Source: Mobula hypostoma (taxonomy: Eukaryota). From it: a DNA stretch of 64,000 nucleotides. The stretch is from NCBI RefSeq assembly GCF_963921235.1, contig NC_086097.1, positions 160,024,001 through 160,088,000 of the forward strand, read 5' to 3'. The notes below the pieces were generated by a model. That model did not search any database. It saw only the letters and a list, made by a program, of their open reading frames with translations, and had not been told where the DNA came from. Shown in pieces: positions 1,203 through 45,385 of the stretch (positions within the stretch are counted from its first letter, which is position 1; the number at the start of each line of letters is the position of its first letter). A program made the translations under genes and the position numbers.

Positions 1203-1345
1203 AAACACAAAAGATTCTACAGATGCTGAAAATCCAGAGCAACTCACACAAAATGCTGGAGGAGTTCTGCAGATTAGGGAGCATCTACAAAGAGGAATAA
1301 ACAGCTGATGCTTCAGGCAAAGACCCTTCATTATGACTGAAAGGA
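1203..1345 (-). mobile_element. Penelope-like terminal repeat (pLTR), inverted, with degenerate hammerhead motif
   Basis: Reverse complement contains CAGTC-ATAATGA-AGGGTCTTTGCCT-GAAG-CATC-AGCTG followed by the shared pLTR body; lies inverted just upstream of a Penelope body. Confidence 0.75.
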
Positions 1346-1374
1346 AGAAGGAATTTTCCAGGGGCAAGATTACA

Positions 1375-2085
1375 CAAGGACTGCTCTCTCCGTGGTTCCT
1401 TTCTCCATTTGTCGCTCCCCACTAAGTACTACACCTGCCCATTCACCTTCTCCCTCACCTCCATTCATGGACCCAAACATTCATCCAAGTGAGGCATCAT
1501 TTCACCTGTGAATATTTTGTGGTTGACTACTGTATAAAGTGCTTATAATGTGACCTTGTCTACATTGGTAGGACTCAATATAGATTGGTGTACTCCTTTG
1601 TTGAACACCTCTGCTCCTTCTGCAAACATCAGGATTTTCCAGTAGCAAACCATTTTAATTCCTATCCCCATTCCATTCTGACATGTTGTTGAATTGCCTC
1701 CTCTTCTGGCACGATGTGGCCACCCTCATTTTAAATGAGCAACACTTCATAGTCCTTCTAGGACCTGATGGCATGAACATTGAGTTCTGGTCATTTTCCC
1801 CCTCCCCCCTCCATCTTCTTTAATTCCCCATTCTGACCTCTTAGCTCTTCTCCTCTTTGCCTATCATCTCCCTTGGTGCACCTCCTTCACCTCTCCCAGG
1901 GTCTACTTGCCTCTCCTATCAGATTCATTCTCCAGCTCTTTACCTTCTCCACCTATCACCTCCCAGCTTCTTACTTTGTCCACTCTCCCCGACCCACTTG
2001 GATTCACTGATCACCTTCTAGCTTGTCCTCCTTTCCCCCCTACCGCCTTCTTCTTCTGACATCTTCCCCCTTCCCTTCCAGTCTC
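1375..2085 (+). mobile_element. Penelope-like element fragment (GIY-YIG endonuclease region plus pyrimidine-rich 3' region)
   Basis: Decayed HFTCE..VVDYCIKCL.CDLVYIGRTQYRL..SFVEHL GIY-YIG motif; homologous to 11980-12260 and 37326-37613. Confidence 0.8.
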
Positions 2086-2149
2086 AAAATGTAATTATTG
2101 CTAATGTTGTGTTCAGTTTATTAGATACTAAGCGTTGTTGGAGACTTTC

Positions 2150-2720
2150 TGAGTGTTTCGTTTGAAATTAAGACGATGCTAATTTAGACTTTGAGTTACT
2201 TAAGATGGAAGGATCAGTATTAGGCTCAGAAGCTGGGTTCTGAATCTGAACAAAAAACTGTGCTGATATGGGACACAAATTACCCTGTACGGGGGTGGGG
2301 GGGACTTTACTGAATGGGTTCATGATGGATAATACTTTAAGAATTGATATGTAAATTCAAATGATCAATTTTTGTCTCGCATAAAACTAGGTGTGGAATG
2401 AGGGATAAATCGTGGATTATGAAGAAAATCAGGAATAGTGTTAGGTCCAAAATGGAAGCTGATAAAATAGCCAGGAGAAATAGCAGGGCTGAGGATTTGG
2501 AACAGGTAGGCAAGAGGGGTAAGTGGGAATATGAAGGTAAACTTACAGGGAACCAAAAAAAACCTGTCTGTCAAAGCTACTATAAATATGCAAAAGGAAT
2601 TGCTGAAAACAAATATAGATCTTCTACACTCAGAAATAGGGAAAATTATAATTGGTAACAAAGAAATGTCAGAATGATTAAATACATACTTTAATTACAT
2701 CTTCACTAAAGGGAACACAA
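2150..2720 (+). mobile_element. CR1 ORF2 EN-RT linker fragment
   Basis: ORF 2398..2658 (SWIMKKIRNSVRSK..EYEGKLTGN..CQSYYKY) matches the CR1 linker pattern PWLT..I...EYE.KLA.NIK.DCKSFYRY. Confidence 0.7.
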
Positions 2721-2831
2721 ATAGCCCTCTGGCCTTCTGCTTGTTCCTAATTTTCGTTTGTACAGTATGTTTCCTTTTCAATGTTGATCCAATTTGCTCT
2801 TTCCTTACTTTATTTTCCTTTGAGTTTGACT

Positions 2832-3180: not shown

Positions 3181-3499
3181 ATGACTTCATGATGACTTTC
3201 TAATTTACCAATGTACGAGTTGTTAATTTACTTACTATTTACTGCTTTTGCTGTTTATATCTCTATGCATTAACCTGGTGGGTAGACTTACAGAAAGTCC
3301 TTGCCTGATTCACTCAGGATTCCAACTATTGTTATCAGCTGACATCTTTAATAACATGCAACTTTTCATTTGTAAAAGCTGATCGTACATGAATTCCTGA
3401 CTAATCCATCACACCCAGCAAAATAGGAGCTTTTCTGTCACAATGATGCAGTGAGCAACTTGTCAATATATATTGAGGATGCTAACTGTTTGCACTGTA

Positions 3500-4038
3500 T
3501 TGAATTAAATTGAATTGAATTGACTTTATTTCTTACATCCTTGACATACATGAGTAAAAATCTTTATGTTATGTCTCCATCTAAATGGGCAATGTGCAAT
3601 CATAGTAATTTATAATAATTTAAAATAAATAGAACAGTCAATGTAATATAGGGTACATTCAAGTCAGTGTGAGTTCATCAGTCTGATAGCCTGGTGGAAG
3701 AAGCTGTCCTGGAGCCTGTTGGTCCTGGCTTTTATGCTGTGGTACCGGTTTGCAGATGGTAGCAGCTGGAGTAGATTATGGTTGGGGTGGCTTGGGTCCC
3801 CAATGACCCTACAGGCCCATTTTACACACCTGTTCTTGTAAATCTCTTCTGAATCATGGGAAGTTCACAACTACAGATGCACTGAGCTGTCCGCTCCACT
3901 CTCTGCGGAGTCCTGTGATTAAGGGAGGTACAGTTCCCATACCAGGCAGTAATGCAGCCAGTTAGGATGCTCTCAATTGTTCCCCTGTAGAAAGTTCTTA
4001 GGATTTGGGGGCCCATACCAAATTTCCTCAACCGCCTG
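3500..4038 (-). mobile_element. Rex1/Babar-type LINE 3' fragment
   Basis: RRLRKFGM..ILRTFYRGTIESILTGCITAWYGNC motif (ORF 3822..4127); (TTCAA)n tail at about 3500-3523. Confidence 0.85.
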
Positions 4039-4092
<54 letters not shown>

Positions 4093-4108
4093 GTGTGTGT
4101 GTTTGTGT
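4039..4108. repeat. (TG)n microsatellite with TGTA interruptions
   Basis: Directly visible. Confidence 0.98.
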
Positions 4109-5019
4109 AGGTATGCGCATATATCAACTCTCACAATTATAAACATAATAATAATCCACATTATGTCAGAAATTACAAGAGCTCTTGCCAATATTCACTG
4201 GGAATCATTTCCAAAGTATTGTAGAACAGTATAAAATTAATCCCTTTGCTTTGTCATAAACGCAATCCAGTTATGAAATTCTAATGTATAGGCTATGAAT
4301 CAGGTCAGGACCTGCAGAATAATTTGAGGAGCAACATCTGTCAGTTCACCTCACCACTGGAGACTGCATTACAGTGTCAGATTCCAACAACTGCAACCTC
4401 TCATTCTCTCCCTTCTCCTTCCTCACAACATCTCCTCAACACTTTGCCTGTCGCTCCCCTAGTTCTTCATGAAGTCTCATCTTCCAGCTGAACAGCAGAT
4501 AGTTAGTTTTGCTCCTTCGTGGGCAAAGGTGAGATCAACAACATTGAATAACACTGTCCCGTCCGAAGCATACTGATCATTTTGATCTCCTTATTTCAGT
4601 CTGCAAGCACCAGTATTACACTGCAGGACCTGCACCAGGACTGGCCTGGCCTAGAACCTGAGTGTCCCAGTGTTTGTTCATTCCTTCATTCCCAATATGC
4701 AGATTGAAAGGGTGCATGCTTTATATTAATCATGTTGTTCTTGTTCAATTAATTTTAATTAGTTATAATTGTTATTCTGTGTTGTGACCAACTATTTTTA
4801 TTTTTAAAAAATCAATTGTTTTAATTATTTTATTTACTTATTACACTTTTAATAGTTTTGTCTCTGCATCTCAGAAATATTTAAAACAATTCAGTTCAAT
4901 TAAAGGTCCGGTAGAAGTCAACACCCCAGCTCCAAGGACTGTGTTCTGTTGAAGCTTGTCAAGCATTTCAGGACCAGGACCTCTGCACTACACCAATCGC
5001 TGTTCACACTTTGTCACTA

Positions 5020-5330
5020 AATTAGGAGAGTAAACAGCAGAAAGTCAGGCCTCCACATTCATACCATGTGCAGGTCGATGTAATAATATGAGGACTGTAG
5101 CAGGTACTCTGTGGTGCAGACACAATCCATCACCATCCTGCTCATGTCATTCATGCCTGATCTATAAAATTGTAAGCCTGCACCACGTGCTTGATTTCCT
5201 AGCTTGGGCTGGAAACTATAAACATCTCACAAGACATCAAGAATGTATTCACTGGTTCATCTATTCACTCTTCCTGGGTGAATGTTTGACCGCAGATTCA
5301 AAGTCCAATTTCTATGGTGTAGTAAAACTT
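5020..5330 (-). pseudogene. Probable highly decayed PIF/Harbinger transposase C-terminus
   Basis: Frameshifted minus-strand peptides FLMS...AQAR/NQAR...IDQA...CYSP.HIITSTCTW occur in the order and spacing of Harbinger WLMTP..AE.RYN.AH..IEQA..LQYSP..II.ACC.LHN. Confidence 0.4.
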
Positions 5331-5939
5331 TCAGTCTACAAACTTGAGGCTAGTCCACAATTGGCAGGTTATCATACAGCAATCATTCTTCATTACAACT
5401 GCTCAGCACGTAAAACTACAAGATTTGCCATTTTTTGCAGCTTGGAATTCATCATTCATCAACAACTCAAGCCAGTGAATAGGCTCTGAATATATTTGAG
5501 AGCATCTGACCAAGTACAGAATGAGACTAATAAGTGGCATTCTGTACACTGAAAACATTAACAAACTAAGTGACTGCATAAAAAGTTTAAAGCAAGCACT
5601 TTTAAGAAGTTTTTTCATAACTCTCAGTTTGATTATACTTTCTACAAAGGAAGTTCTTTAAGAATGACAAGTCAAGGAACTCATTAAAAATATTTATACT
5701 AAATCTTGTATCCCAAATTCAAGACAAAGCGAATTAGAATTGGGAAGTTATTTTGTTGAAATTCATAATAGTTAAGACATATTTAATTTTAACAAGTTTT
5801 AATCTTGAATAAGTTTCATTGAATGTTTTTTCTAAAGCTTTTGTGTCTTGATATCAACCAAACCAATCTGATTTGTTTCACCTATTGAGCCCACTAAAAG
5901 AAACAGAAAAATTCTGTTGTATTATATTACATGCAACAT

Positions 5940-6145
5940 TGGGCTAGTCACCAGAGATATGAACTGATAATCCATATTGATCTAAGTTCAAATCCCACCA
6001 TGACAGGTGAGAAGATTGAAATCAATTTGAAAATAAATCTGGAAAAATAAGGGTTGGTATCAGAAAAAAAAATGACCTTGGAACTGTCAAATACTAGCTA
6101 AAATCTGGTAGGCTCCTAATTTATTTTGGGACAGGAGACCTGATC
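5940..6145 (+). mobile_element. tRNA-derived SINE remnant
   Basis: B-box-like GTTCAAATCCC followed by ACCATG.CAG and ATAAATCTGGAA, resembling a common chondrichthyan SINE as recalled; not searched. Confidence 0.55.
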
Positions 6146-6689
6146 TACCACAGACAGCGGAATAAATGTCACATTTTCAATCAAAACAAAGATCATGAAA
6201 ATCCATGAGAAAATATATTTTACTAAGCTTCCTTTATATACTTTCATGAGAAAGGATTATTCACAAAATGAAAAAAAACTTAAATAAACTACATCTATAA
6301 AATTATGAAATGGATGCATAATAAATTTAAAATCAATTAAGTTATGCTGCCAAATAATAATCCTTCATCACATGATGTGAAAGCACACATACAAAGCTGT
6401 GCCTAAAGTGCATCTGAAAATCAGAAGTTTTTATCAAAGAGTCAATAGATCAGAATGGACAGTTATTGATAAGTAAATGATCTAAATATATTGAAAAAAG
6501 TAGTTCTAGACTAGGTTGAGTTTTGAATTAAATTTTGCCTTGCGTTAATTCAATATTAATCTTTTATCAGATTCTGTTTATAAAAGGTTATGAACTGTGA
6601 TATGTAAGCCTACTTTGATCGTCTTTAAAAAGTCATGGGTTTTAGCTCATAAATGTAAGTCCAGTGACCCAGATGGTGCTGGTGTATGT

Positions 6690-6900
6690 ACAAAATGATT
6701 AGAGAAAATTGGTCCATACTCTCCGGAGTTGGGAGGAATAAGAGGCAAATACATTGAATTAAATAGGATTCGATGAGAGATTGAAAAGGAAATACTGGGA
6801 ACTGTTTTGTCCGGCTGAAGAATTTAGTGACTCAGCATAAAGTATTCATTAACAGCAGATAATGAAAAGAAAAATCTTTACTCAAAGGTTTGTGAATTAT
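6690..6900 (+). mobile_element. CR1 3' fragment, old
   Basis: Decayed LEK.G.YS.E..R.RG..IE motif and FTQR.V motif. Confidence 0.55.
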
Positions 6901-7259
6901 TCAATAAATGAGCTATCTTTATTCCAATCTCAAGCAATGAAAATTACTTAGAAAAATATGAGGAGACTTGCACAGCTGATGAAGCATGCGCACCAGGTTA
7001 ATTCACTCTATTCACTACCTCAGACCCATTCTCTACTATACTCCACTCTCCTTCATATCCCCACACCATCCCAGTCTCACTGTGACCTCTCTTCTTTTGG
7101 CTTCAAACACTATTCTTGCCGAGAGGAAGGTGTCACTTTTCCACATAATTCAGCATAATTCATTCCATCAGTGCTCCGCATTGAATCAGCCTCTCAAATA
7201 TGCTCAAAATCATATTACCATTTAATATTCTTTTAGCCATCTGATGCAGAAATTTATAT

Positions 7260-7760
7260 GTAATTGACTAATGTTGTCTTACTCTTTGTATCACCTACTT
7301 CAACTGTCGCTTCAACATCCCATTTCTGGATGTCAGGTTTACAAGGAGATATTTAATACCTGAGGACCATAACCTAGACTGAGTGTTTCATTCCATAACC
7401 TGAGTAATAATTTAATTTCAGTCTCAACTGCCAGTCTTCCATTCTTTCTTCAAGCTTTGGCTGAAACTAAGCTCATTCGTGCTCTGAATATTTCATGCAT
7501 TGGTATCTCAGCAGGAGTACTAACTCCTGTAGAAGTTGGCATTGCTGTGAAGTTTAGCGAGGTTGTCTCAATGTTAACCCAGAATATATTTATCTTTTGT
7601 TTCTTCAGAGCTTCTTCTGACAATTTCCTCAGATCCCCAATTTAATACTGAATGATTTGACAGACTAAGACTGTGTGAATACTATTTTATTTCTTTAAAC
7701 ACTCAAAAAATCTAAATCAATTTAGCTCATCATCCAAGACTAATTCTTCCAGTAAACCAT
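7260..7760 (-). pseudogene. Gypsy/Ty3 integrase core and C-terminal remnant
   Basis: Minus strand gives DGLLEELVLDD (GLPEELVSDNG), EALKK, PTSTGVSTPAEIPMHEIFRARMSL (TTG.SPAELLM.R.LRTRL), GP, and LKR at Gypsy integrase spacing; many stops. Confidence 0.6.
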
Positions 7761-7985
7761 CAGAATCTGAATCAGGGTTATTACCACAATTGTCATGAAA
7801 TTTGGTTTTCTGTGGCAGTAGTACAATGCAAGACATAAAGATTGTTATAAGTTACAATTTTAAAAAAATAATTAAATAGTTCAGAAGAGAAATAGTGAGA
7901 TAGCACTCATGAGTTTATGGACCATTCACAAAACTGATGGTGGTGGGGAAGAAGCTGTGCTTAAAATTTCTGAAGAAGCTGTGCT

Positions 7986-8085
7986 CAGTCCTGAGGAATG
8001 ATATCACCCCAAAACGTTGACTATTTACTCTTTTCCATAGATGCTGCTGACCTGCTGAGTTCCTCCAGCATTTTGTGTGTGTGGC
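7986..8085 (+). mobile_element. Free-standing Penelope pLTR copy with degenerate hammerhead
   Basis: CAGTC-CTGAGGA-...-AAAACGTT-GACTA then ATAGATGCTGCTGACCTGCTGAGTTCCTCCAGCATTTTGTGTG; inserted in a Rex1 3' region next to the local duplication GAAGAAGCTGTGCT (7948-7961, 7972-7985). Confidence 0.8.
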
Positions 8086-8369
8086 TATTCCTAAAATTCC
8101 TAATTTCCTAAAATCCGTAGAAGTGTGTGCCTTCAAGCTCCTGTTTCTCCTCCATAATGATAATAATCAGAAGACAACATGTCTTGTATAGTGAGGTCCT
8201 TAATGATGGATTCCATCTTCTTAAGGCACTGCCTTTTGAAGATGCCCTCAATGGTTAGGAGGCTCGTGCCTGTGAGGGAGCTTGCTGAGTCAATCACTCT
8301 CTGCAGCCTCTTTGATCCCGTGCTTTGGAGCCTGCATACCAAGTGGTGATGCAACCAGTCAGAATCCTC

Positions 8370-8429
8370 AACATAAACACAAGAGATTCTGCAGATGCTG
8401 GAAATCCAGAGTAACAGACAGAAAATGTT
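8370..8429 (-). mobile_element. 60-bp Penelope pLTR 3' end with 13-bp target-site duplication
   Basis: Flanked by AGTCAGAATCCTC (8357-8369) and AGTCAAAATCCTC (8430-8442); the insert matches 1203-1255. Confidence 0.8.
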
Positions 8430-8846
8430 AGTCAAAATCCTCTCCATGGTACATGTGTAAAAATTTTGCCAGAGTCTTTGGTGACCTACCAAATCTCCTC
8501 AAACTCCTAGTGAAGTAGAGCAGCTGGTGTGCCATTTGCTTCAATATGTTGGAACCAGGATAGATCCTCTGAGAAGTAGATGACCAGGAATTTGAAGGTG
8601 CTCACCCTTTTCATGCTGACCCCTCAATGAGAACTGGTGTGGGTTCTCCCGACTTCCCTTTCAGAAGTCCATGATTGATTCTTTGGTTTGCTGATGTTGC
8701 GTGTGAGAGCGTTGTTGTGACCCCACTCAACCAGCTGAACTACCTCACTCCTGTATGGCTCCTTGTCATCTCTGAGATTTTACCAATGACGGCGGTGTCA
8801 TCTGCAAATTAATAGATGGCACTTAAGTCATGAGTGTAGAGAGAGT

Positions 8847-9939
8847 CTTCTTCTTCTTCGGTTGTCCATTGAAATCCGATGACGACATTCACTCCTTTAA
8901 CGGTGAGATCTTTGATGACTTTCCAGTCCTATCCTGGACCCACAAGTTCTATTGCAGGTGGGACATGTATATGTGGTAGTGGTGGTAGTGATGGCAACCG
9001 TGACTGCATTTCTCCTGGCTCTCTTCTGCTGTCTTCTGGTTGTTCTTTCAATCTCCAGAATACGAACCCCGTCCCTGCACAGCTGTCGCAAAGTGGTACG
9101 GTCAGCAGCAACATCCTCCAGGTCCTCGGGTCTGATCTTGCATTTCCCTAAAGCATTCTTCATCTGATCCTTATAGTGCTTCTTCGGCCTTCCAGCTGAG
9201 CGTCGACCATGATGTAGCTGGCCGTATAACACTCTGCGGGGTAGCCGACATGGGGGTATCCTTATCACGTGCCCCAGCCACTACAGCTGACGCTGGGTGA
9301 TCATGGCCTCAATACTTCTGCAGTTGGTCTTTACAAGTATTTCAGTGTGAGGCACCCGCTCACACCAGCTAATTCCTAGGATGCGCTGGAGGCAGCTTAT
9401 GTGGAAGCACTCCAAGGACTTGATGTGACGGCTGTAGGCTACCCAAGCTTTACAGCTATAAAGGAGGGTGGTGACACAGACAGCTTGGTACACAGTGACC
9501 TTTGTGGAGGGTCGAAGGCTCCTGTTCTGAAAGACTCTATGCCAAAGTCTCCCAAAGGCAGCTGATGCCTGTTTAATGTGGCTCTGGATGTCGTTGTCAA
9601 TGCCGCTATCCTCAGAGAGAATGCTCCCCAGATATTTGAAAGATGGCACTACTGACAGTTTTTCATCACCAACAGTGAAGGCAGGTAGAGTGGGTGGGAC
9701 ACAGGTACTCCATTGGCAAACCAGTTCTGTCTTGGTGGTATTGATAGTCAGCCCCATCCTGCTGTACGCTCTCACCACCACAGCAAGGACAGTCTGAAGA
9801 TCGTCTGGAGTATGGGCCACAAGAGCGCAGTCGTCTGCATACTGTAGCTCCAGGACCCGCTCTCTACGGAGTTTGATGGTTGTGTGGAGCCTCCTGATGT
9901 CAAAGAGGTTGCCATCTAAACTGACATCCACTGCCACAC
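8847..9939 (-). mobile_element. RTE-clade LINE, young, 5'-truncated (RT C-half plus C-terminal C2H2 finger)
   Basis: ORFs 9281..9952 (ELQYADDCALVAH, FKYLGS, ASAAFGRL) and 8897..9268 (CPTC..CGSRIGLESHQRSH) are in one frame with a single stop; (GAA)n tail; TSD AGAGAGAGT at 8838-8846 and 9940-9948. Confidence 0.95.
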
Positions 9940-10249
9940 AGAGAGAGTACAACAGTGAGCATGTATCCTTAGGGTGTGCCTGCTTTGATTATTAGCAAGG
10001 AAGGGATACTACTACCGATCCACACTGACTCTTGTCTCTTGAAGAGGAAGTCAAGGAAGGTACATAGAACTAGGCTTTGAAGCTTGCTGATTATAACTGA
10101 GGGGATGATGGAGTTGAACACTAATTTGTAATCAATAAACAACAACCTGATGTCAGTACTGCAGTTGTCCAGGTGGTCCGAGGCCACTTGTGTTTTACGA
10201 TATTGGATGTTAGTATGCTTTATTGTCATACTTAATAAAACATATTTTC

Positions 10250-11260: not shown

Positions 11261-12282
11261 ACTGCCTTTTCCTCGTTTTTTTTCTCTCCTTCCCTTTTCC
11301 ATAGACAGAAGATACAAAAGCTTAATAAAACCAGACTGTCTGCCTGAAGTACACCTTCTATTCAGCTATCTTAAGACTGTTGAATGGCCTCCTTGTATGC
11401 CAAAGAACTTTTGTTCTCTCTCACTCTATTATCATGGCATAGAATGCCTTTGGATGGCTGATTCTTTTCTTTATTTCTCAAAATCCTATTCCCTTTTGTC
11501 AATAAAGATGCCATTCCCATTCCTCAGTTCCTTTGTTTTTACAGCATCTGTTCCCAGGATGAGGCCTTCCTTCCCAGGATAGTAGTGATGTCCTCCTTCT
11601 TCAAAGAATGGGCTTCCCCTTCCTCCAACATCGATGCTGCCTCATCCACATTTCCTCCATTTCCCGGTCATCCACCTTCATCCATCTTCATGCCGTGTCA
11701 ACAGGGATAGAGTTCCTTTTGTCCTCACCTACCATCCCCTGAGCCTCCAGGTCTGGCACATCATTGTATGCAACTTCCACCACTCTACTACCAAACACAT
11801 CTTTCCTCCCCCATGCTTCACTTCCTGCAGGGACTGTTCCCTCCATGATTCCCTTGTTCATTTGTCCCTTCCAATTAATCTCCCTCTGGGCATTTATCCT
11901 TGCAAACAGTAGAAATGTTGCACCTACTCAATTGCTTCCTCCCTCACCTCTATTCAGGGACCCAAACAGTCCTTCCAGGTGAGGCAACACTTCACCTGTA
12001 AATCTGTAGGGTCACCTACTTTATCCTGTGCTCCCGATGCAGTCTCCTCTATACTGGGGAGACTCAATGCAGATTGGGGGATATCTTTGTTGACTATCTT
12101 TCCTCCCTCTGAAAAAAGTAAGCCATTTTATTTCCAATCCCCATTCCCATTCCGATCTGTTGGTCCATGGCCTCCTCTATTGCAGTGATGAGGCAACTGT
12201 TATGTTGAAGGAATAACACTTCATATTCCATCTGATTAGCCTCCAATCTGATGCCATAAACATCGATTTCTCCAACATCTGA

Positions 12283-12382
12283 AGCAACACACACAAAATG
12301 CTGGAGGAACACAGTAGGCCAAGCAGCATCAATGGATAAGAGTAAACAGTCGATGTTTCAGGTCTAGACCATTCATCAGGAT
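12283..12382 (-). mobile_element. Penelope pLTR copy with near-intact hammerhead core
   Basis: Reverse complement of 12347-12381: TC-CTGATGA-ATGGTCTAGACCT-GAAAC-ATC-GACTG. Confidence 0.85.
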
Positions 12383-12439
12383 CCCTCTCCAATTTCCAAT
12401 CATTTTCCCCCTTCCCCCATCCATCTTCTTCAAACCTCT

Positions 12440-14113
12440 AGAGGTAGCGGAGGTACTTAATGAATACTTCGTTTCAGTATTCACCAGGAAAAAGTCCTTG
12501 GCAATTGTAGGGATGACTTATAGAGGACTGAAATGCTTGAGCATATAGACATTAAGAAAGAGGATGTGCTGGAGCTTTTAAAAAGCATTGAGTTAGATAA
12601 GTCACCGGGACCGGATGAGATATACCCCAGGCTACTGTGGGAAGTGAGGGAGGAGATTGTAGAGCCTTTTGCAATGATCTTTGCCTCTTCAGTAGGGATG
12701 GGAGAAGTACTGCAGGATTAGAGGGTTGCAAATGTTTTTCCCTTGTTCAAGAAAGTGAGTAGAGATCATCCGGGAAATTATCAACTGATGGGTCTGATTT
12801 CAGTGGTGGGCAACTTGTTGGAGAAGATCCTGAGAGGCAGGATTTATGAGCATTTGGAGAGACATAATCTGATTAGGGATAGTGAGCATGGCTTTTTCAA
12901 GGGCAGGTCATGCCTTACAAGCCTGATTAAATTCTTTGAGGATGTGACTAAACACATTGATGAAGGTAGAGCAGTGGATGTAGTGTCTATGGATTTCGGT
13001 AAGGTACTTGATAAGGTTCCCCATGCAACGTTCCTTCAAGAGTAAGGACGCATGAGGTCCAAGGAGACTTTGCTTTGTGGACCTAGAACTGGCTTGCCTA
13101 CAGAAGGAAATGGGTGGTTGTAGATGGTTCATATTCTATATGGAGGTCAGTGACCAGTGGTGTTCCATAGAGATCTGTTCTGGGATCCCTCCTCTTTGTG
13201 ATTTTTATAAATGACCTGGATGAAGAAGTAGAAGGGTGGGTTAGGAAGTTTTCTGATGACAGAAAGGTTGAGGGTGTTGTGGATAGTCTAGAGGATTGTT
13301 AGAGGTTACAGCGGGACATCGATAGGATGATGAACTGGGCTGAGAAGTGGCAGATGGAGTTCAACCCAAATAAGTGTGCAGTAGTTCATTTTGATACATC
13401 CAATTTGAAGACAGATATCAATATAAATGGTAAGAATCTTGGCAGTGTGGAGGATCTGAGAAATCTTGCAGTCCTTATCGATAGGATTCTCAAAGCTGCT
13501 GCGCAAGTTGACAGTGCTGTTAAGAAGGCATGTGGTATGTTGGCATTCATCAACCATGAATTGAGTTCAAGAGCAGTGAAGTAATGTTACAGCAAACAAG
13601 ACCTTGGTCAGACCCCACCTGGAGTATTGTGTTCAGTTCTGGTCACTTCACTACAGGAAGGATGTGGATACTATAGAGAGAGTGCAGTGGAAATTTACAA
13701 GGATGTTGCCTGGATTGGAGGGTGTACCTTATGAGAATAGGTTGAGGGTACTTGGCCTTTTCTCCTTGGATTGACGGAGGATGAGAGGTGACATGATAGA
13801 GGTGTATAAGTTGATGAGAGGCATTGATTGTGTGGATAGCCAGAGGCTTTTTCCTAGGGCTGAAATGGCTAACACAAGGGGGCATAGTTTTAAGGTGCCT
13901 GGAAATGGGTACAGAGGGGATGTCAGGGCTAAGTTTTTCACACAGAGCGTGGTGGGTGCGTGGAATGCACTGCCGGTGGCAGTGGTGGAAGTGGATACAA
14001 TAGGGTCTTTTAAGAACCTCTTAGATAGGTACATGGAGCTTAGAAAGTTAGAGGGCTACGCGCCAGGGAAATTCTAGGCAGTTTCTAGAGTAAGTTACGT
14101 GGTTGGCACAACA
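12440..14113 (+). mobile_element. CR1 LINE (RT to 3'UTR), frameshifted
   Basis: ORFs 12533..12721 (KSPGPDEIYPRLL), 12743..13045 (HGF.KGRSCLT.LI.FFE), 13327..13584 (WAEKWQMEFN) and 13781..14077. Confidence 0.95.
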
Positions 14114-14469
14114 TTCTTCCCCTTATCTACCTATCAATTCCCCGGGTGTCTCTCCTCCTTCCCTTTCTCCCATGGTCCATTCTCCTGTCCTGTCAGATTC
14201 CTTCTTCTCTAGCCCTTTACCTTTTCCACCTATCACCACCTAGCTTCCTGCTTCATCCTTCTCTCCCACCTACCTGGCTTCACCTACTATATTCTTGCAT
14301 TTAATCCTTCCCCTCCTCCCACCTTCATATTGTAGCTTCTTCCCTTTTCCTTTCCACACCTGATAAAGGGTCTCACCCCAAAATGTTGAATGTTTATCCA
14401 TTTCCACAGGTGCTGCTGACCTTTCGACTTTCTCTAGGTATGATACATTTTGCCATTCTTTCTTACCAA

Positions 14470-15320: not shown

Positions 15321-15324
15321 TTTA

Positions 15325-18946: not shown

Positions 18947-19229
18947 ATTGATATACTCAGGAAATCAGGCAGCTTCCACAGAAAGAGAAAAAATGAAGTT
19001 GATGCTTCAGGGCAATACTTTTCTGCCTAAATAAGTGATTGATTTGATACATTAATCCAAAGCCAGGTAGCACTCTCATGTCTACAATACAACAGCAGTT
19101 CATTCCAGTCTCACCCATGTGCTCTGGACTGTGTTTCAGACCTGCATCCTTCATTATTATTGTGTCTATCAATTGTAAGAGTGGACCAGTAATCAGGTAA
19201 AGGACACAACAGTAAAAGCAGCGTGGTAC

Positions 19230-30060: not shown

Positions 30061-30488
30061 ATAAAAAAAGAACATATAGGGTAGTAGGCATAAATATGGA
30101 CAAACATTCTAATAACAGCTCTGGGGCAGAAGTATAAAATAAGAAAATCAGGACAAAAAAAAAGTCCTGAATAACGAAGAATAATTAAGAGTTGTTTAAA
30201 CAGTGTTGGCACTAGAAAACCCTCCCCCCCACCGCCCCCTGTCCCAAAGCAAGAAAGCTACCAAAGAAAAGCAGCTGGCTCTTCAGAAAAAAACTACCCC
30301 TAACCCCAACTTCCAGTTTCTAAATATCTTCATGAGCTCCGTTTAATTAACAGTTTAAAAAAACAGAGAGCTTATGCACTTGCAATTAAAATTGTACATA
30401 AAGAAAAAAAGAAAACAGTACTATCAAGAAGTATTAGACTTAACTTGAAATAATAATCCAGATTACCATACCCACGAAAAAAAAAGAA

Positions 30489-31000
30489 TTCAGTAATTAA
30501 AAATTAATTTTATAAAGAAAACAGGGGAAAAAAAACAAAGAAAAAAAATACCAATCAGCCATCTTAAATAATCAAATCGAGTCTAAAGGAGACGCCATAG
30601 CAAAGAGACTTTCGATAAATTTCTGAACTACTTATAGCAAAGTTAAACCATTTTCAGTAATTTAAAAATTAAATTTAAAAGGAAAACAAAAAATAAAAAA
30701 AAACCAAAGAAAGGAAAACATGGTAATCGGTCATTTTAAATAATCAAATCGAGTCTGAAGAAATCACGATGGCAAAGAGATTTTCGATAAATATCTGAAC
30801 TTCTTATACCAGAAATAAACTGTTTTCAGTAATTAAAAAAATTTAATTTAAGAGGAAAACAAAAAAATTAAAAAAAACAAGGAGAGAAAAAAATAGCAAT
30901 CAGCCATTTTAAATAATCAAATCGAGTCTGAAGAATTTGCAGCAGCAGGGAGACTTTCAATGAATTCCTGAAATTTTGTAACAGAGTTGAACCATTTTTT
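30489..31000 (-). repeat. About 172-bp tandem array (two full extra copies plus a partial) in the L1 inter-ORF spacer
   Basis: AATCRGYCATYTTAAATAATCAAATCGAGTCT recurs at 30553, 30725 and 30898. Confidence 0.9.
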
Positions 31001-31743
31001 GTCCCCAGTACTAAGAGTTATTTGGAGATGGGCGGGATAAGTTCACGACTGTAAAACTCTTTCATAACACCTTTGTATTCAGCATGCAGCCTCAAAACTT
31101 GAGGAACATAATCTTCAACAATACGAATGGGATGGCCCTTGTAATTCAATTTTCCTCTCCGACGTGCTTCCATAATCAAAAGGTTTTTCACTTGAAAACA
31201 ATGAAAACAGAGTATAACTGGGCATGGCCACGAGCCCAATTCAGGCTTCAACCGAAATACCTGTACACGGTGGACTCTGTCTAACTCAGGAGAATTCGGA
31301 AGAATATCTTCCCCAAAAATCTCACAAAGGGGAAAAAAAATTCAACAGGAGCTCCGCTTTCGATAGCCTCTGGCAGACCAAGGATTCATAGATTATGCTT
31401 TCTGCTCCAACCTCGAGATCAGCTATTTTTGATGATAACTTGGTGTTATTCTCACTCAAATTACAACAAACGGCTTCCAGCTACTAAATACGACATTTTA
31501 AATCTCCGGTTTCTGAGTCAAGATGAGAGAGACTAATGGCATGATCCTTCACTTTGGAATTGATTTGATCCAATTTTGACTCCAACAAACTGAAGGAAGA
31601 CTTAAATTCAGATATAATCTCTTGACGGTGCTGGCCTTGAAGACTTAAATTCAGATATAATCTCTTGACGGTGCTGGCCTTGAATGGCGATAATGTCGGC
31701 AGAGACTTCTTTTTTTCCCAGATTTAGAGGGCTTGAAGGCCAT
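30917..31743 (-). pseudogene. L1 ORF1 (RNA-binding protein), frameshifted
   Basis: EIFGEDILPNSPELDRVH; PVILCFHCFQVK; LNYKGHPIRIVEDY; ends WFNSVTKFQEFIESLPAAANSSDSI*. Confidence 0.85.
31596..31681. repeat. Perfect 43-bp tandem duplication within L1 ORF1
   Basis: GAAGACTTAAATTCAGATATAATCTCTTGACGGTGCTGGCCTT occurs twice in tandem. Confidence 0.95.
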
Positions 31744-32053
31744 TGTAGGACAGATGGGCAGGTAGGAGAACTAAAAAAAAATTAGCAGTCTGGAGTAGAA
31801 AAAGGAAGATAAGAAGTATGGGGGTAAGGCATGAAACACAGCGACAATTTTAAGCCATTAACCTATCACCATCTTACCGGAAGTCGCCTTATGAGAATAG
31901 GTTGAGTGAACTCAGCCTTTTTTCCTTGGAGCGACGGAGGATGAGAGGTGACCTGATAGAACTGTACAAGATGATGAGAGGCATTGATTGTGTGGATAGT
32001 CAAAGGCTGATTCCCAGGGCTGAAATGGCTAGCACGAGAGGGCATAGTTTTAA

Positions 32054-32534
32054 AACATAGAAACAAAGAAACATAGAAAACCTACAGCGCAATACAGGCC
32101 CTTCGGCCCACAGAGTTGTGCCAAACATGTCCCTACCTTAGAAATTACTAGGTTTACCTTTGGCCCTCTATTTTACTAAGCTCCATGTACATATCTAAAA
32201 GTCTCTTAAAGGACCTTTTCGTATCCGCCTCCACCACCGTTGCCAGCAGCCCATTCCACACACTCACCACTCTCTGAGTAAAAGCTTTACCCCTGACATC
32301 TCCTCTGTACCTACTCCCCAGCACCTTAACCTGTGTCCTCTTGTGGCAACCATTTCACCTCGGGGAAAAAGCTTCTGACTATCTACACAATCAATGCCTC
32401 TCATCATCTTATACATCTCTAACAGGTCACCTCTCATCCTCCTTTGCCCCAAGGAGAAAAGGCCAAGTTCACTCAACCTATTCTCATAAGGCATGCTCCC
32501 CAATCCAGGCAACATCCTTGTAAATCTCCTCCTC
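32054..32534 (-). mobile_element. CR1 3' fragment inserted antisense into a CR1 of the same subfamily
   Basis: TTTTAA duplicated at 32048-32053 and 32535-32540; ORF 32264..32515; tail at the left end. Confidence 0.92.
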
Positions 32535-33214
32535 TTTTAAGGTGCTTGGAAGTAGGTACAGAGGAGATGTCAGGGGTAAGTTTTATACGCAGAGAATGGT
32601 GAGTGCGTGGAATGGGCTGCCAGAGGCGGTGGTGGAGGTGGAAACGATAGGGTCTTTTAAGAGACTCCTGGATGGATACATGGAGTTGAGAAAACTAGAG
32701 GGCTATGGGTAAGCCTAGGTAGTTCTTAGGTAAGTACATGTTTGGCACAGTTTTGTGAGCCGAAGGTTTTCTATGTTTCTATGATTCTGACTGGTTTCAT
32801 CACAACCCCAAAAGGAGGCTCCAATGTACAGGACTGCAAACTCACCCAGCTCCATCATCGGCTCTACCCACCCTGCCATCGGGGGTATCTTCAAAAGAAG
32901 GAGCTTTAAGAAGGTGGTATCCATCATTAAGGACCCTCACTATTCAGGTTATAGCCCCTTCTCGTTACTACTGTAATTGAGGAGGTATAGAAGCCTGACG
33001 AACCATACTCAATGGTTCAGAAACATCTTCTTCCCCATCGCTATCAGATTACTGAATGGTCCATGAAGCCATGAAGAGTACCTCACTATTTAGCCCTATT
33101 TATTTATTTTGTAATTGATAGTAATTTTATGTCTTTACACCATATTGCTGATGTACAATAAATTTCAGCAGCTAAAATAAGTTAAATGAAGTTCTCACAG
33201 AGGTTTCAACATTT

Positions 33215-36620: not shown

Positions 36621-37099
36621 TATAAGGAAGTAAGATTCATATAGACTTTTGTTGGAGAAATCCAGAGAGCAGCTGCTCCATTCTGTCCAACTCCATTGTG
36701 TTTTTAGCTAATCAAAAAAAAAACAACAGCTACAATGTTTCAGGGGAAACACAAACAACTTATGAAGTCATTTCTTTGATCTTCTATAATGAGACACCAA
36801 TTATGACAAACAGCAGTAAATTGCCTTTCAGATCACATTAGTTAAAAATATAGATCTCAATGAACATGTAGCAAACACCATTCTTTGTTAGATAAGAAAT
36901 GTTTGGATGTACTTTTACATCACTTTCCAGAAGTGTACAGAAATTACAACTGTTAATTACACCAGAGGTTAGTGATACCCACTGAATGATCGTAATTACA
37001 CGTTATTGGATTACAATAGTATTTTGCACAAACTAATGGTAGTCCTGAAATTATGTTTAGCTCTGAGTATAGAAATCAAAGTTTTTACATCATCCTCTG

Positions 37100-38014
37100 C
37101 AATTTTTGACATTTCCAGAGGGATCTTACCACCAAATACATATATCTTCACCTCCTCTCACACCTCTCTGCTTTCTGCAAGGTTCATATCCTGTATGATC
37201 TTGTCCATTCATCCTTTTCCACTAATTTCCCTCCCAGCATTTATCCCTGCAAGCAGCCAAAGTTCTACACATGCTCATTCACCTCCTTCCTTACCTCCAT
37301 TCAGAGCCCCAAACAGTCCTTCCAAATGAGGCAACCCCTCACCCAGGAATCTGTTGGGGACATCTATTGTGTCCAGTGCTCCCAATGTGGCCTCCTCTAT
37401 ATCGGTAAGACCCATCTCAAATTAAGAGACCACTTCATTGAGCTGCTCCGCTCTATCCACCAAAAACTGAACTTCCTGGGAGTCAAACATTTTTATTCTG
37501 ATTCTCATTCCCATTCAGACATGTTGGTTTATGGCCTCCTCTTGTGCCAGGAAGAGGACACCCTCAGGGTGGAAGGAACAACATCTTATATAGCCTCTAA
37601 CCTGGTGGCATGAATATTGATTTCTCTTTCTGCTAAAAAAAAATCCTTTCCCCTACCCTCTTCTTCTATTCCCCACTCTGGCCTCTTACCTCTTCTCTCC
37701 TGCCTATCACATCCCACTGAGTCCCCTCCTCTTCCCTTTCCCTTATGGTCCGCCTTCTCTCCTGTCAGATTCCCTTCTCTCCAACCCTTTTCTTTCATAC
37801 CCACCTGGCTTCACCCATCACCTTCCAGCTATCCTCCATCCCCTCCCCACATCTTTTTATTCTGGTGTCTTCCCTCTTCCTTTCCTGAAGAAGGGTCTCG
37901 GCCTAAACGTTGACTGCTTATTCATTTCCATAGATGCTGCCCGGCTTGCTGAGTTCCTCCAGCGTTTTGTGTGCATTGCTTTGAATTTCCAGCATCTGCA
38001 GAATTTCTTGTGGT
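37100..38014 (+). mobile_element. Penelope-like element 3' part: GIY-YIG domain, pyrimidine-rich region, pLTR with hammerhead
   Basis: ORF 37326..37613 (DIYCVQCSQCGLLYIGKT..LRDHFIE); CTGAAGA-AGGGTCTCGGCCT-AAACGTT-GACTG at 37885-37916. Confidence 0.9.
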
Positions 38015-38214
38015 TATAAAGGCTTCACCTAATTCTGTTAGGTTTTCCATATCCTTAATTATGTTCAAAACTTCAGAGGGCTATGAGGTTAATTATTCCT
38101 TATTACCCCTCTTCAGCTGCACAGAGCCTAACAGAATTCATACAATGTCTCCTTCCCTCTTCTTCTGTTTCCTCTGCTCCTCCTCAGCCACAGTTATCAC
38201 AGTTATTGAAGCTG

Positions 38215-40295: not shown

Positions 40296-41238
40296 TGTAG
40301 GTGTCAGAGTAGAGCGGGTGAATAAAAGCAGTGCATTTTGTAGGTGTTACTCACTGCATCTTAGATGTGCCATTAGCAGAAGGAATAATTGCTTCAGGTT
40401 TTGGATGGGTTATCATCCAAATGGAATAATGTCAAGCATCTTTAATGTTGGGGCAGATAGAGTGAAGAGTATACAGAACTTTCTCTGTAACTGTAACACT
40501 TTCCTCATCTAGTACTTCATCAAATTCAGTGTCATCAGCAAACTTATTAACCAGCACATTTACATCATGAAAAAAAGATCTCAGCACTGACTGTTGCAGA
40601 ACACCACTTGGTTACAGAACTCCAGATAGAGAAATACCCCTCCACCCCTACTCCCTGACTTCTGTATTCAAGCCAATCTACCAGGTCAGCCATTGCCTTA
40701 ACCTTCTGGATCATCCGACCAAGAGGCACTTTACCAAATCTGATGGAAGAGAGGTCATTAGTGGTGCGGCTGAAGGTGGCTGGGCCTAGAGAATTGCTAG
40801 ATAAATGCCTAAAGAATTGCCCAAGGACTGGGAGATCATATTTCAACAAGCATAACAATTGTTCTTTCTGTGAGGTTTGATTCCTGTCATTGAATGACCT
40901 TCCTTCGAAAGCCATTGACTTCAATTTTATCATGGCTCTTTGATCAAACACTCTGGCTTAATGTCAGGGGTGGTCAACCCAACTTCACTTCTGGAATTCA
41001 GCCTCAGGGTCCATATTTGGACTGAGGAGATCTGAAGCCAAATAGTGCAGACTGGAGGAGAAAATTATTGGAGAGTAAGAGCCGCTCGTCACATTCCAGC
41101 ACCTTGATAGGTGGAAGCTAATAGGATTTGATTTGTCCCGTTTTCATGGAAAGAAAATCCCTGGGCAATTGTTCACATTATCAGGTCGATGCCCTTTTGT
41201 AACTGTATTAGATACACTGGGCAAGCTCTGGATATTCA

Positions 41239-41325
41239 AGCAACACACATCAAAGTTGCTGGTGAACGCAGCAGGCCAGGCAGCATCTATAGGAAGAGGT
41301 ACAGTCGACGTTTTGGGCCGAGACC
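41239..41325 (-). mobile_element. Free-standing pLTR copy truncated inside the hammerhead
   Basis: Reverse complement begins GGTCTCGGCCC-AAAAC-GTC-GACTG. Confidence 0.8.
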
Positions 41326-41659
41326 TCTCTCTCCTTTTTGTCCCTCTCACTATACCCCTTGCCCATCCTCGTATTTGTGTTTTTAAGCTCTGGATGTTAG
41401 CTGGGTTGTTGTCCAATGGAATGGAATAAATCACGTTGGCTGAAGGCTGGCTCCTCTGACAGGAATTCCTTGAGAGGAATCGCAGGTCGATCATCTCTCT
41501 GCATATCTAATTGTGTGTGTTACAACCTCCTCTTTTGGACCCACATGTTGGCTACCTCGTTATGTATCATGGTTTGACAGCTTTAATTATCTGCAAATGT
41601 GATTCTTTCTCCAGTAATACAGAAACTCCTTTCAATCCATGTCCTCAGATCAGACATTT

Positions 41660-42997
41660 GACATTGATTACAGTCCAGTGGCCCTGACCTCACACACCAC
41701 GAAGACCCAAGAGAGGCTGGTCCTGACCGCTTCCAACCCCTGGTCAGATCAGCCCTCCATTCCCTGCAGTTTGTCTACCAGGTGCACACTGGAGTCAGCG
41801 ATGCTGTCATCGACCTGTTGAACAGAGCCTACTCCTAACTGGATAAGCGGGGCAGCACTGTGAGGATCATGTTTTTTGATTTCTCTAGTGCCTTCAATAC
41901 CATACAGCCCTCATTACTGGGGGAGGAGCTCCATTCAATGCATTTGGCACTTCTGTTGTATCTTGGACAGTAGACTACCTGACTGGCAGACCACAGTATG
42001 TGCAGCTCAGAGCTATGTGTCAGACATGGCTATAAGCAGCACTGGGGCCCCAAGGGGAAGTTTACCTGCTCCCTTCCTGTTTACCCTATATAACAAATTT
42101 CACTGTTAACAAATTTCATGACACTTGCTGGTGACAAACCAGATTCTGATTCTGATCTCAGACTACAGATATTCTCTGATGACTCAGCAATAGTTGGGTG
42201 TATAAAGGGAGGACGGGAGGATGAATACAGGGCCCTGGTAGACTTTGTCAGATGGTGCAAGCTGAATCATCTGCAGCTCAACATCAGTAAGACAAAAGGG
42301 ATGATGATGGGCTTCAGGAAGACTAAGCCTGCATTGCTCCCTGCTACTATTGATGATGAGGACGTGTATGCGGTGAGGATCTACAAATACATGGGGGTGC
42401 ACCTGAATGACAGACTCGAGTGGAGCACCAATACAAGAAGGGCCAGAGTTGCCTCTGCTTCTTGAGGAGAGTGAGGTCCTTTGGAGTATGCAAGCCTTTC
42501 TTTCACATGTTCTACCCAGTCTGTTTTCGCCAGTACAATCTTCTATGCAGTGGTATGCTGGGGCAATGGCATCGACACGAGTAATGCCAACAGGCTCAAT
42601 AAACTGGTTAGAAAGGCTGGCTCTGTTATAGGAGTCAAACTGGACACACTGGAGGCTGTAGTAGAATAAAGGACTTTACAGAAAATCCTGGCAATACTGG
42701 ACAAGAATTCTCACCTTCTGCATGCCACCATGACTGAACAGAGGAGCACTTTCAGTAATAGACTAAGACAACTATGCTATTCCAAAGAGTGCTATATGAG
42801 GTCATTCTTACCCTCGGCCACTAGGCTCTATAATGAGTCAACCTAGAGAAAGGGAAGTGATAGACTCCCCCCTGTTAGACTATTTGAGGAAACTTATTTT
42901 TTTTATTAATTTTACTTCTCTTTTAATATTTATATCTGTGTACTTGTAATACTACTGTGACACTGTAATTTCCTTTGGGATCAATAAAATATCTATC
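41660..42997 (+). mobile_element. Rex1/Babar-type LINE RT to 3' end
   Basis: DYSPVALTSH..KT.ERLVL; STGAPRGS..APFLFTLY; LQIFSDDSAIVGCI; WCKLNHLQLNISKTK; CAATAAAATATCTATC end; a short foreign tail is inserted at about 42090-42155. Confidence 0.9.
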
Positions 42998-43889
42998 GTC
43001 TTACATTTTTCTTTAATGAAGGAAGTAAAGGAAGTGAGAAAATTTAAAAGCTTAAACATAGCTTTAGGAAGCTGAGTGAGCATGGGTAGAACGTTCAAAA
43101 ATTAAGATAGGTTAAATCATTGTGCAAGTACGATAAAAAAGGAAGAAAAGCTCTTGAGAGGAGAGTTGTCAATCTGTAGATAACAATCAGGAAATGGTAC
43201 TTCTTTTGAATTGGTACTGTCTCAGTATTGGAGGATAACATAGCAAAGGTCTTGAAGTAATTCATAGTGATGTGAATAATATTACCATGGATTAAAGAGA
43301 TATTTTTTATGTCTTAATTATGCCAATGGATGGCAAATAGCCAGGGATTGGGAGGTTACCCAATAGTTACATTACTAGACTAATGGAGAAAGGCCTGCTA
43401 TTTAAACTATAATTTAAATGTTACCACTGCAGCTGCACAATATATCTTCAAGTAATTGAATAAAACTCAAGTCTTTCATGCAATGAAATCTGCATCTGCT
43501 CCTAGATTGGCCAGAATGGACCAGACTGGATTCACCAATCTAAGCATCAGCAATGGCAATGGCTGTCTCAGAAAGCCAATCAATTTAGGGGGCAAGTAGA
43601 AATGAACAATAAATGCTACCATTATCAGTAATTCTCACATTCTGTGACTAAATATGCATGAGGAGAATTAGCAGATGCCCAAAAAGTTATCTAAACAATT
43701 TACACCTAACTACAATCTGGGCAAGGGAATTTGCAATAAACTATAGGAATCCCAAGAGGTATGGAGGAGTTTTGGATATCAGAACACGTCCACAGATCTC
43801 TGAAGGACAGACACTGGTAAGGAAGGGATTCTTACCTATACTGATCTTTACATGGACATTTTGCTGGAACCATATATCGCTACTAATGC

Positions 43890-43978
43890 AAGCTGCTGGA
43901 GAAGTACAACAGGCCAGGCAGCGTCTATGGATCAAAATAAACAGTTGATGTTTTGAGCCTAAACTCTTCATCAGGAAA
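43890..43978 (-). mobile_element. Free-standing pLTR copy with hammerhead motif
   Basis: Reverse complement: C-CTGATGA-A-GAGTTTAGGCTC-AAAAC-ATC-AACTG. Confidence 0.75.
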
Positions 43979-45209
43979 GCTGATATAAAATGGTGGTATA
44001 TAAAACAGTGATATATAAAGAGATTAATATTAAACAGTGATTCCCTATGAGGGGTGCATAGGAACACTAAAGATTACAAGGGTTTATTTGATTTTAATAA
44101 TATTAAATCAATTTAGTTAGAAAGGTCATAAATAGTGAAAATAAATAAAATTGTTCCCAACCTGATGCACAAGCCTCCTGATTTTATGATGATTAAAGAG
44201 ATCAGAGTTGCAAGCTTCACATAGATTTGTACAGCATTCCAGCAAAGAGGCCCTTCAGCCCATAATGTCTATGCTATCAAGCATCCACTTGCCTGATCCA
44301 TATTCGATTCTCCTCACATTCCTATCAATTTACCCCAGTTTCTGTCTTTCATTTACAAAGAGCAGACAATTTATTGAGGCTAATCAGTCTACCAACTGAA
44401 GTACCTCAGCCGACACAGAAAAGGACTGAACATTCAGCACTTATCCTTGATAAGCAATATATCCAGTTGCAGTTCTCCTTTGTATGTCAGGTTGCATTTA
44501 TTCAGTTCCTCTGTCAGTGTGTTTTCTGCATTTTCTTTTGATCTCTAAATACAATCAATGAAATCCCTTGCAATAAACCTTCAGCTTGACAAGCATAATG
44601 TTAGCACAAAGAGTCAAGTCATATTTATCACAAAGATATACTGCAATCCTGTGATTTTCTAGTTTTGATCCATTTATCTTCCAGTAAAATCTAAAGCAAA
44701 CACAGAGCCTATGATTAGGGCCATGATTTGTTACTAGTATAAAACTTGGACAAGTGTCAGTAATGCCAACTTGAGGATTGTACCTGAATGTGAAAATAAG
44801 GACCATATCTGATGATGCAAGACACTTATAGTATGCTCAAATTCAGGTTTCTTAGTATATAGAAAGAGAACAAATAGTTAACATATTGACCCAGCTATGG
44901 CTACTTCCACAAATTCAATTTTGCTGTGGATACCTCCTAGGCTACAGTGGTCTCAGTTTATTCTAAAAATGATCCAAGGGATCCAAGACAGCAGCTAATT
45001 CATGAAAACTCACTAATTTCAGAATCGGGTTTGAGGTTAAACAATGGAGTCTCTTGCGATTGGGACGTCTTTCTATATTTTTCTTTTCGCGTTTTCACTG
45101 TGCACAGAAAGATTCTACATAAGATCTAGGGAGTTTTAAATTGTTAAGCAATTTCTCTCATCATCTTACAAAGTCATACAGAACAAACGTGATAAGATTC
45201 CAGAGGTAA

Positions 45210-45385
45210 AAGAGACTCTGCAGATACTGGAAATCTTGAGCACCATACACACAAAATGCCAGAGAAATTCAGCAAGTTGGGTAGCATCTATGGAGAGAAA
45301 TAAACAGTTGATATTTTTGGCCCAGACCCTTCATTAGAAATCCTGATGAAGGGCTTGGCTTGAAACAACAGCTGTTTTCTGTGTG
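45210..45385. mobile_element. Inverted pair of pLTR/hammerhead units
   Basis: Minus-strand unit 45210-45337 abuts the plus-strand CTGATGA-A-GGGCTTGGCTT-GAAAC at 45343-45366. Confidence 0.8.

Follow-up and report, generated by a model that had tools for sequence, protein, structure and literature searches.

What are the short repeats with hammerhead-like cores that lie scattered over this stretch of the Mobula hypostoma genome, and do the copies that stand alone form a mobile family of their own? In the window, meaning here the whole 64,000-nucleotide stretch analyzed (GCF_963921235.1, NC_086097.1, positions 160,024,001 to 160,088,000), a preliminary description had located nine repeat arms at eight loci and had read the 100-140-bp unit as a ribozyme-headed, non-autonomous retroposon. 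With a probability of about 85%, the unit, a minimal hammerhead motif followed by a tail of 92 or 129 nt, is instead the 3′ end of a Neptune-like Penelope retrotransposon that has amplified enormously, and the solitary copies are its shortest target-primed insertions, with no separate mobile family behind them.

The positions at which copies begin and end carry much of this reading. They are numbered from C3 of the CUGANGA core (position 0), the 3′ product after cleavage would begin at +28, and mapped ends carry an alignment error of a few nucleotides. A core-anchored sample holds the 100 young copies listed of 39,061 core matches; a tail-anchored sample (100 copies listed of 67,476) was added since the former is blind to ends inside the core, and both come from young subfamilies in the first 7 Mb of one chromosome. 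A third sample consists of 95 matches, out of 594 genome-wide, to the start of the open reading frame (ORF) directly behind the tail. Subfamilies were defined by clustering, and their majority lines were compared. In the core-anchored copies the 5′ ends form a continuum from 0 to -2870, that is, up to 2.9 kb, and the 3′ ends cluster near +92 and +129, both tail ends being common to short and long copies. Target-site duplications (TSDs) of at least 10 bp flank 18 of 27 short young solos (control 0/216), 18 of 40 long solos (control 1/320) and 71 of 73 inverted rows (control 8/584), the last including some pairs counted from both arms. Short solos carry TSDs and are therefore true insertions, a property shared equally by the long copies, and their origin as deletion remnants is ruled out. 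Nine sites in the unit are variable, each of them polymorphic in short as well as in long copies, and at three the allele frequencies differ mildly; neither an allele private to the short copies (stubs) among these sites nor a fixed 5′ end was found in the 100 young copies, as a stub lineage would have. As had been proposed, the solos are thus primary insertions, often with their start at the ribozyme, but the length continuum, the common tails and the shared alleles do not agree with a separate ribozyme-headed retroposon. Two points count against this conclusion, namely the weak TSDs of the old window copies and the narrow range of young subfamilies and chromosomal sequence from which the anchored samples were drawn.

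All nine arms are present at the coordinates and on the strands given for them. A profile built from these arms and run with nhmmer, with reversed DNA as control, yields 11 window matches at E ≤ 4.3e-4, consisting of the nine arms and two more degenerate copies, and the same profile gives 28 matches in 164 kb (the window plus ten other 10-kb regions) compared with none in reversed DNA, a density that would put the copy number in the 3.48-Gb genome, very roughly, at several hundred thousand. The eight loci are all decayed 3′ ends (hammerhead plus tail) of the Neptune-like Penelope element. Every window copy is damaged at one or more core or stem III positions, and none passes a descriptor for the minimal hammerhead, compared with 236 passes in the loci fetched from elsewhere, in agreement with the earlier statement that no copy is fully intact; the lesions are also often at CpG sites as described (32 of 72 CpG positions changed vs. 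25 of 231 others). That several copies stand alone holds for three arms (7986, 12347, and 43942) but not for the other six, of which two (14360 and 37885) are attached to upstream element sequence and four (1302, 41302, and both arms of 45305) lie in three head-to-head insertions.

The parent element was reached from a frame remnant at 37110-37610, which has about 130,000 candidate matches in the genome. Stepwise 5′ extension led to complete elements: of 20 fetched regions, 6 have the hammerhead in both pseudo-long terminal repeats (pLTRs) at full spacing. Copies L088 and L098 carry uninterrupted frames of 1044 and 1043 amino acids, which encode reverse transcriptase (RT) and a GIY-YIG endonuclease (EN). 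In L098 the hammerhead occurs in both pLTRs with a period of 3518 bp, the stop codon lies about 300 nt ahead of the 3′ hammerhead, and the tail continues into the ORF start; the frame is open from +87, and its first likely start codon, the ATG of MPTPKK, is found some 170 nt downstream of C3. RT and C-terminal GIY-YIG in one ORF identify an EN+ Penelope-like element (PLE), and the Pfam models RVT_1 and GIY-YIG match the sister copies L043 and L044 at E values of 1e-5 to 1.5e-3, below curated cut-offs. The linker that joins RT to EN in L098, CKRNKCYTC, is of the CX2-5CXXC type, and the translation contains a CCHH zinc finger with two cysteines between GIY and YIG (VIYCVRCSRCGLLYIG ... EHLRSV ... 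ATHF). Such a linker together with the CCHH finger, as the latter is defined in the same account, marks Neptune or Nematis elements (Craig et al., 2021, PMC8557442), and the element is therefore of Neptune or Nematis type; it appears to be Neptune-like, judged by the linker and the reported vertebrate occurrence of Neptune rather than by an RT tree. Direct pLTR repeats around the ORF, tandem and inverted truncated copies and a tail of about 37 nt complete the EN+ PLE architecture. Contigs from sequencing runs (8 of 22 runs) place the family in five organisms; they showed no molecule ends and no junction at the cut site, a negative that carries no weight for expression or cleavage. One head-to-tail tandem, L407 (G000:C2:157231600-157237500), exceeds one full 3.5-kb unit and is 97-98% identical to L098. 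Three read-through copies (L096, L310, and L321) have a common 5′ end at -462/-463 in the AT-rich ATTTTAATT stretch of the GIY-YIG region, possibly a self-insertion or joining hotspot.

At the family level the hammerhead is intact. The core that had been rebuilt from the damaged window copies exists as an exact 33-mer in 1,105 genome copies and, including CAGTC, as an exact 38-mer in 76, and it equals the majority line of the older clusters; a younger variant (CUGACGA, UAGUC, CCU) has 39,061 exact copies, and a degenerate intact core has 76,577 matches genome-wide, all reversed-pattern controls giving 0. The family sequence has CUGANGA, GAAA, an NUH triplet, stems I and II and a palindromic 15.2-16.2, and so bears out the proposed minimal type-I hammerhead of a Penelope pLTR with an extra A after A9 and a palindromic ACGU stem III. 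Older subfamilies have a G10.1-C11.1 pair, and the youngest, that of the 39,061 exact copies, has G10.1-U11.1. The covariation claimed for stem II did not survive as a family feature, the stems being nearly invariant between subfamily majority lines. GGG/CCY occurs 76,577 times, single changes 1,508 and 844 times, and the double change GAG/CTY 41 times against 16.6 expected, an excess (2.5-fold, Poisson 3e-7) that is real yet small and that may, as a conjecture, be attributed to mixed copy ages. No subfamily majority line has GAG/CTY, and a GAG/CTC subfamily was rejected after 30 of the 41 copies, inspected by eye, fell in several subfamily backgrounds; the GGTC/GACC copy at 12347 is altered on one side only, with G10.1 broken. 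When the majority sequence of 31 old long copies is compared with L098, with the young reference as the basis of alignment and without a significance test, the 38-nt motif is the same at 36 of 38 positions, the flanks are 69-85% identical and the ORF end 89%, and in contigs of other organisms similarity drops off at the motif borders. Since the core is kept better than its flanks and similarity is lost at the same borders elsewhere, the sequences suggest selection on the motif. Rfam found no hammerhead family in the window, nor in three loci with intact motifs, and is therefore uninformative for motifs this small; a descriptor scan of the fetched loci returned no unrelated hammerhead family.

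Head-to-head pairs bear on how the insertions are made. One long and one short tail are found in 49 of the 49 distinct pairs with two measurable tails, and the solos split 33 to 37. Arm lengths within pairs correlate (rho 0.61), and paired arms come from the same subfamily, agreeing at 202 of 228 diagnostic sites compared with a shuffle mean of 56% and maximum of 71%. The short-tail arm is the one that reaches further upstream, by more than 20 nt, in 18 of the 49 pairs, and as each arm then holds sequence absent from the other, both need an RNA template; for these 18, fold-back on one cDNA is rejected as the sole source of inverted pairs. RT would start internally at +92 or +129, as the RT of PAc, the Poseidon element of Anolis carolinensis, does in vitro, and both nicked target strands would be primed on RNA of one source locus, one strand per start site. 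The pairing fits PAc, for which both strands are cut and extended, two internal starts delimit the tail, and a dimer is predicted. The one-sided tail of PLE insertions is known qualitatively; the literature searched, which excluded subscription papers and supplements that may list the family, yielded no figures for strict long/short pairing or for a 5′ hotspot at the ribozyme edge.

Such a hotspot is seen at the front edge of the motif. In the tail-anchored sample, 11 of 100 copies stop at +60..+31, 15 of 89 at +30..+1, 28 of 74 at the edge itself (0..-29), and then 6 of 46 at -30..-59 and 2 of 40 at -60..-89, so that the rate is 1.26% per nt at -29..0 vs. 0.06-0.17% upstream of -60. The frequency of edge stops among copies that reach the edge depends on the class of template: 16 of 23 copies that end in the ORF start stop at the edge, as do 28 of 74 in the main class and 4 of 36 long read-through copies (chi-square p 2.7e-5). 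The first of these is a minor class of 41 copies (L293-L412) that end at +171..+435, often as tandem duplicates with a common 3′ end; ending there, they can only have been primed within the 5′ part of an RNA, and they suggest short RNAs primed at their 3′ ends. A fixed pause predicts equal rates, and class-dependent stopping therefore favors an RNA 5′ end. Many copies would then begin at the front edge because some element RNAs likely begin there: many cDNAs would run off the RNA 5′ end just in front of the ribozyme, longer read-through RNAs would yield the long and tandem copies, and a pool of each kind would explain the stop pattern, to which palindromic joints may add. Transcription of Drosophila virilis Penelope starts inside the pLTR from an internal promoter (PMC2377424).

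Several points weigh against such an RNA start. Its position would be deduced from DNA contigs alone; the hotspot is broad, extending from +60 to -29; the 16 of 23 are in part tandem units that are not independent, the count being 12 of 14 once these are removed; and 32 of 36 long read-through copies pass the edge, for which reason a second RNA pool must be assumed. In addition, many head-to-head joints use local self-complementarity (CCTTC/GAAGG, AGTC/GACT) and could themselves create part of the peak. These joints, which fall at -4/-5 and -13, lead to the alternative that the hotspot, and the hotspot only, reflects a template barrier or joining artefact, such as the ribozyme fold, dimer pairing through stem I, a bound protein or two cDNA ends annealed through local palindromes. 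This possibility, which we hold tentatively and consider less probable than not, also accommodates a stop rate already raised inside the core (0.37-0.56% per nt) and the fact that most full-length templates reach upstream of the edge; a barrier, however, should stop copying equally at each pass, and the rates seen are 70%, 38% and 11%, while an artefact of joining is at odds with solos that have no partner arm and also stop at -3..-11. A polypyrimidine tract and AG lie right before helix I (L098:1700-1724 and window 37868-37885 and 2065-2085), with TACTAAC at this place in one subfamily (L048), and resemble a 3′ splice site; in D. virilis Penelope, likewise, an intron ends at helix I. Splicing was nevertheless rejected as the cause of the hotspot: solo TSDs abut directly, there is no common upstream exon, and the junction of the tandem array L408 lacks a GT donor.

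L408 (G000:C2:157816000-157819000, minus strand) is one insertion with a 13-bp TSD and about four tandem 310-bp units, starting at +68, continuing through three full units that differ by 0-1 base and ending at +93, with a hammerhead after each join. It may be a retrozyme-like array made by repeated copying or the product of later local duplication. Head-to-tail hammerhead arrays, which characterize non-LTR retrozymes, are absent from the window, and L408 is the one found elsewhere, where the genome was not searched for arrays as a whole. An elaboration of the RNA-start reading, speculative and on balance doubtful, is that short RNAs of 100-350 nt, starting at the uncut hammerhead front edge, are copied by an asymmetric RT dimer from two fixed starts into both target strands, occasionally repeatedly around into arrays like L408. 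If true, a Penelope transcript would here be giving rise to a non-LTR retrozyme, and stubs would occasionally serve as new templates.

Whether the ribozyme itself determines what is copied can be judged from the cut site. Copies starting there number 1 of 100 in the tail-anchored sample and 0 of 95 in the ORF-start sample, and cleavage therefore does not set the inserted 5′ end; the RNA that is copied would nearly always be uncut (or religated). Nearest-neighbor folding gives the inactive monomer rod -11.0 kcal/mol, and the active-type dimer is predicted at -11.5 (young) or -19.9 kcal/mol (older form) vs. -30 to -34 kcal/mol for inactive dimers, values that agree with reports of PLE hammerheads being weakly active or assisted by protein. 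Minimal hammerheads reportedly cleave as dimers, and the ribozyme here would be able to cut only in that form, probably weakly or with the help of protein. It is unlikely that cleavage defines the template and that a cut or circularized monomer is copied, even though the hammerhead is placed in both pLTRs at unit spacing, its core is better kept than its flanks from old to young copies (36/38 vs. 69-85%), and some copies exceed one unit (L098 and L407), as a religated circle would allow. Besides the rarity of cut-site starts, the conserved G-C is replaced by G10.1-U11.1 in the youngest subfamily, and ribozyme mutants of PAc insert normally with no reads ending at the site (PMC11167929).

The weakest alternative, that the 100-140-bp unit is its own ribozyme-headed retroposon, retranscribed from solos and mobilized in trans, could draw on the abundance of stubs (54 of 100 tail-anchored copies have their 5′ end at -29 or downstream), on their TSDs and starts at the ribozyme, on the allele shifts at three sites, on the single 310-bp array and on an internal promoter of the kind described for D. 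virilis Penelope (PMC2377424), which stubs might retain, but is very improbable given the absence of a fixed 5′ end and, among the nine variable sites, of stub-private alleles, the tails and TSDs shared with long copies and the frequent pairing of short arms with long ORF-bearing arms in a single insertion.

The motif and its dispersal are known biology. Minimal hammerheads in the pLTRs of metazoan PLEs, dispersed genome-wide as single copies and as opposite-strand pairs, are described by Cervera and De la Pena (2014, PMC4209133). As there, the family has intact cores, an extra nucleotide between 9 and 10.1, a palindromic 15.2-16.2 and a helix I of 4-5 bp, with motifs in both pLTRs, mostly single in truncated elements, and some close opposite-strand copies. 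It differs in the G10.1-U11.1 of the youngest subfamily and in number, with at least 76,577 intact-core matches here vs. about 4,000-9,000 reported for coelacanth and Xenopus with a different descriptor; the parts of that study consulted, supplements aside, list no cartilaginous fish. The 5′ truncation, partial tandems, adjacent inverted copies, 30-40-bp tail at one end, TSDs, CX2-5CXXC linker and CCHH GIY-YIG are shared with EN+ PLEs of Neptune/Nematis type as set out in the accessible text of two accounts (Arkhipova et al., 2013, PMC3846280; Craig et al., 2021, PMC8557442), of which PMC3846280 favors self-priming on an antisense template. Unlike in those descriptions, so far as their accessible text goes, the one-sided tail is strict here (49/49), subfamily alleles are common to both arms, and fold-back of one cDNA cannot account for 18 of 49 pairs. 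PAc (Frangieh et al., 2024, PMC11167929) likewise has two internal RT starts that delimit the tail, cutting and extension of both strands and uncleaved RNA as the dominant substrate; its ORF starts inside the hammerhead, compared with an open frame from +87 here, and in vitro it shows no strand difference in start site, whereas pairs here always have one of each. Derivation from pLTRs and the array L408 recall non-LTR retrozymes (Cervera and De la Pena, 2020, PMC7229834; Li, Clavereau, Pollet, 2026, 10.64898/2026.07.22.740005), and the latter report pLTR-derived retrozyme arrays in one chondrichthyan; in contrast to the retrozymes those sources describe, copies in the window occur dispersed, as monomers or inverted pairs, and have a minimal rather than canonical hammerhead. 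The scale of the family is an asset, as tens of thousands of near-identical young copies together with intact ORFs make the start and end of Penelope insertions countable. The pattern makes testable predictions about the mechanism, namely that RT has one start site per strand, that the template is uncut RNA and that an RNA 5′ end lies at the edge of the ribozyme, and the natural contrast of G10.1-C with G10.1-U asks whether the ribozyme matters to a successful element.

Within the window, the first insertion joins an inverted arm (1202..1348, minus strand) with hammerhead and long tail (-17..+130), its core carrying lesions at three catalytic positions and 16.2, to a partner arm (1358..2085, plus strand) with a decayed Penelope ORF end (linker, GIY-YIG) and 3′ untranslated region (UTR) up to the hammerhead edge, which has lost its hammerhead and tail (tblastn E 3e-27 to the L098 protein; self-blast). 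A solo stub (7981..8098, plus strand; -4..+95, short tail) lies within an unrelated repeat and has a weak TSD-like repeat, and 8370..8437 (minus strand) is a fragment of tail only (+80..+134). A decayed Penelope ORF 3′ fragment (11492..12279, plus strand; thumb, linker, GIY-YIG; tblastn E 3e-64) ends at the stop codon, and at this ORF/3′ UTR junction of the older copy lies a second solo stub (12282..12385, minus strand; -2..+96) with an 11-bp TSD-like repeat with 2 mismatches. The two 5′-truncated copies, both on the plus strand, comprise 210 nt of 3′ UTR, hammerhead and short tail (14125..14453) and a linker, GIY-YIG remnant, 3′ UTR, the hammerhead at 37885 and long tail (37089..38015; blastn E 2e-102, tblastn E 4e-44). 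A younger copy (41223..41397, minus strand), 91% identical to L098, has an arm of +9..+106 head to head with an inverted 3′ UTR piece (41324-41370) and a 13-bp TSD with 1 mismatch. The third solo stub (43862..43982, minus strand) starts from -2, and a TSD was looked for there and not found; at 45190..45399 two stubs meet head to head at the hammerhead front edge, and this pair has a 13-bp TSD-like repeat with 2 mismatches. The two very degenerate copies missed by the preliminary description are at 18950..19027 (nhmmer E 2.6e-7) and 47904..48007 (nhmmer E 1.4e-6), both on the minus strand. Six kb to the right of the window, L222 is a read-through copy beginning at +2 of the 5′ hammerhead.

Other repeats are also present. 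Many long interspersed nuclear element fragments, which from their translations we take to be of CR1/L2 type, lie at 56000-58860, 16210-17580, 21180-22170, 25340-25910, 12710-14110 and 31880-32770. Remnants at 27728-29751 (minus strand), 8900-9990 (minus), 49646-50431 (plus), 59080-59680 (plus) and 50467-50931 (minus) are presumably L1/Tx1, RTE, Rex1-type, another non-LTR RT and a Tc1-type transposase. A 172-bp tandem repeat of 2.4 copies and a perfect 43-bp duplication are found at 30476-30998 and 31596-31684.

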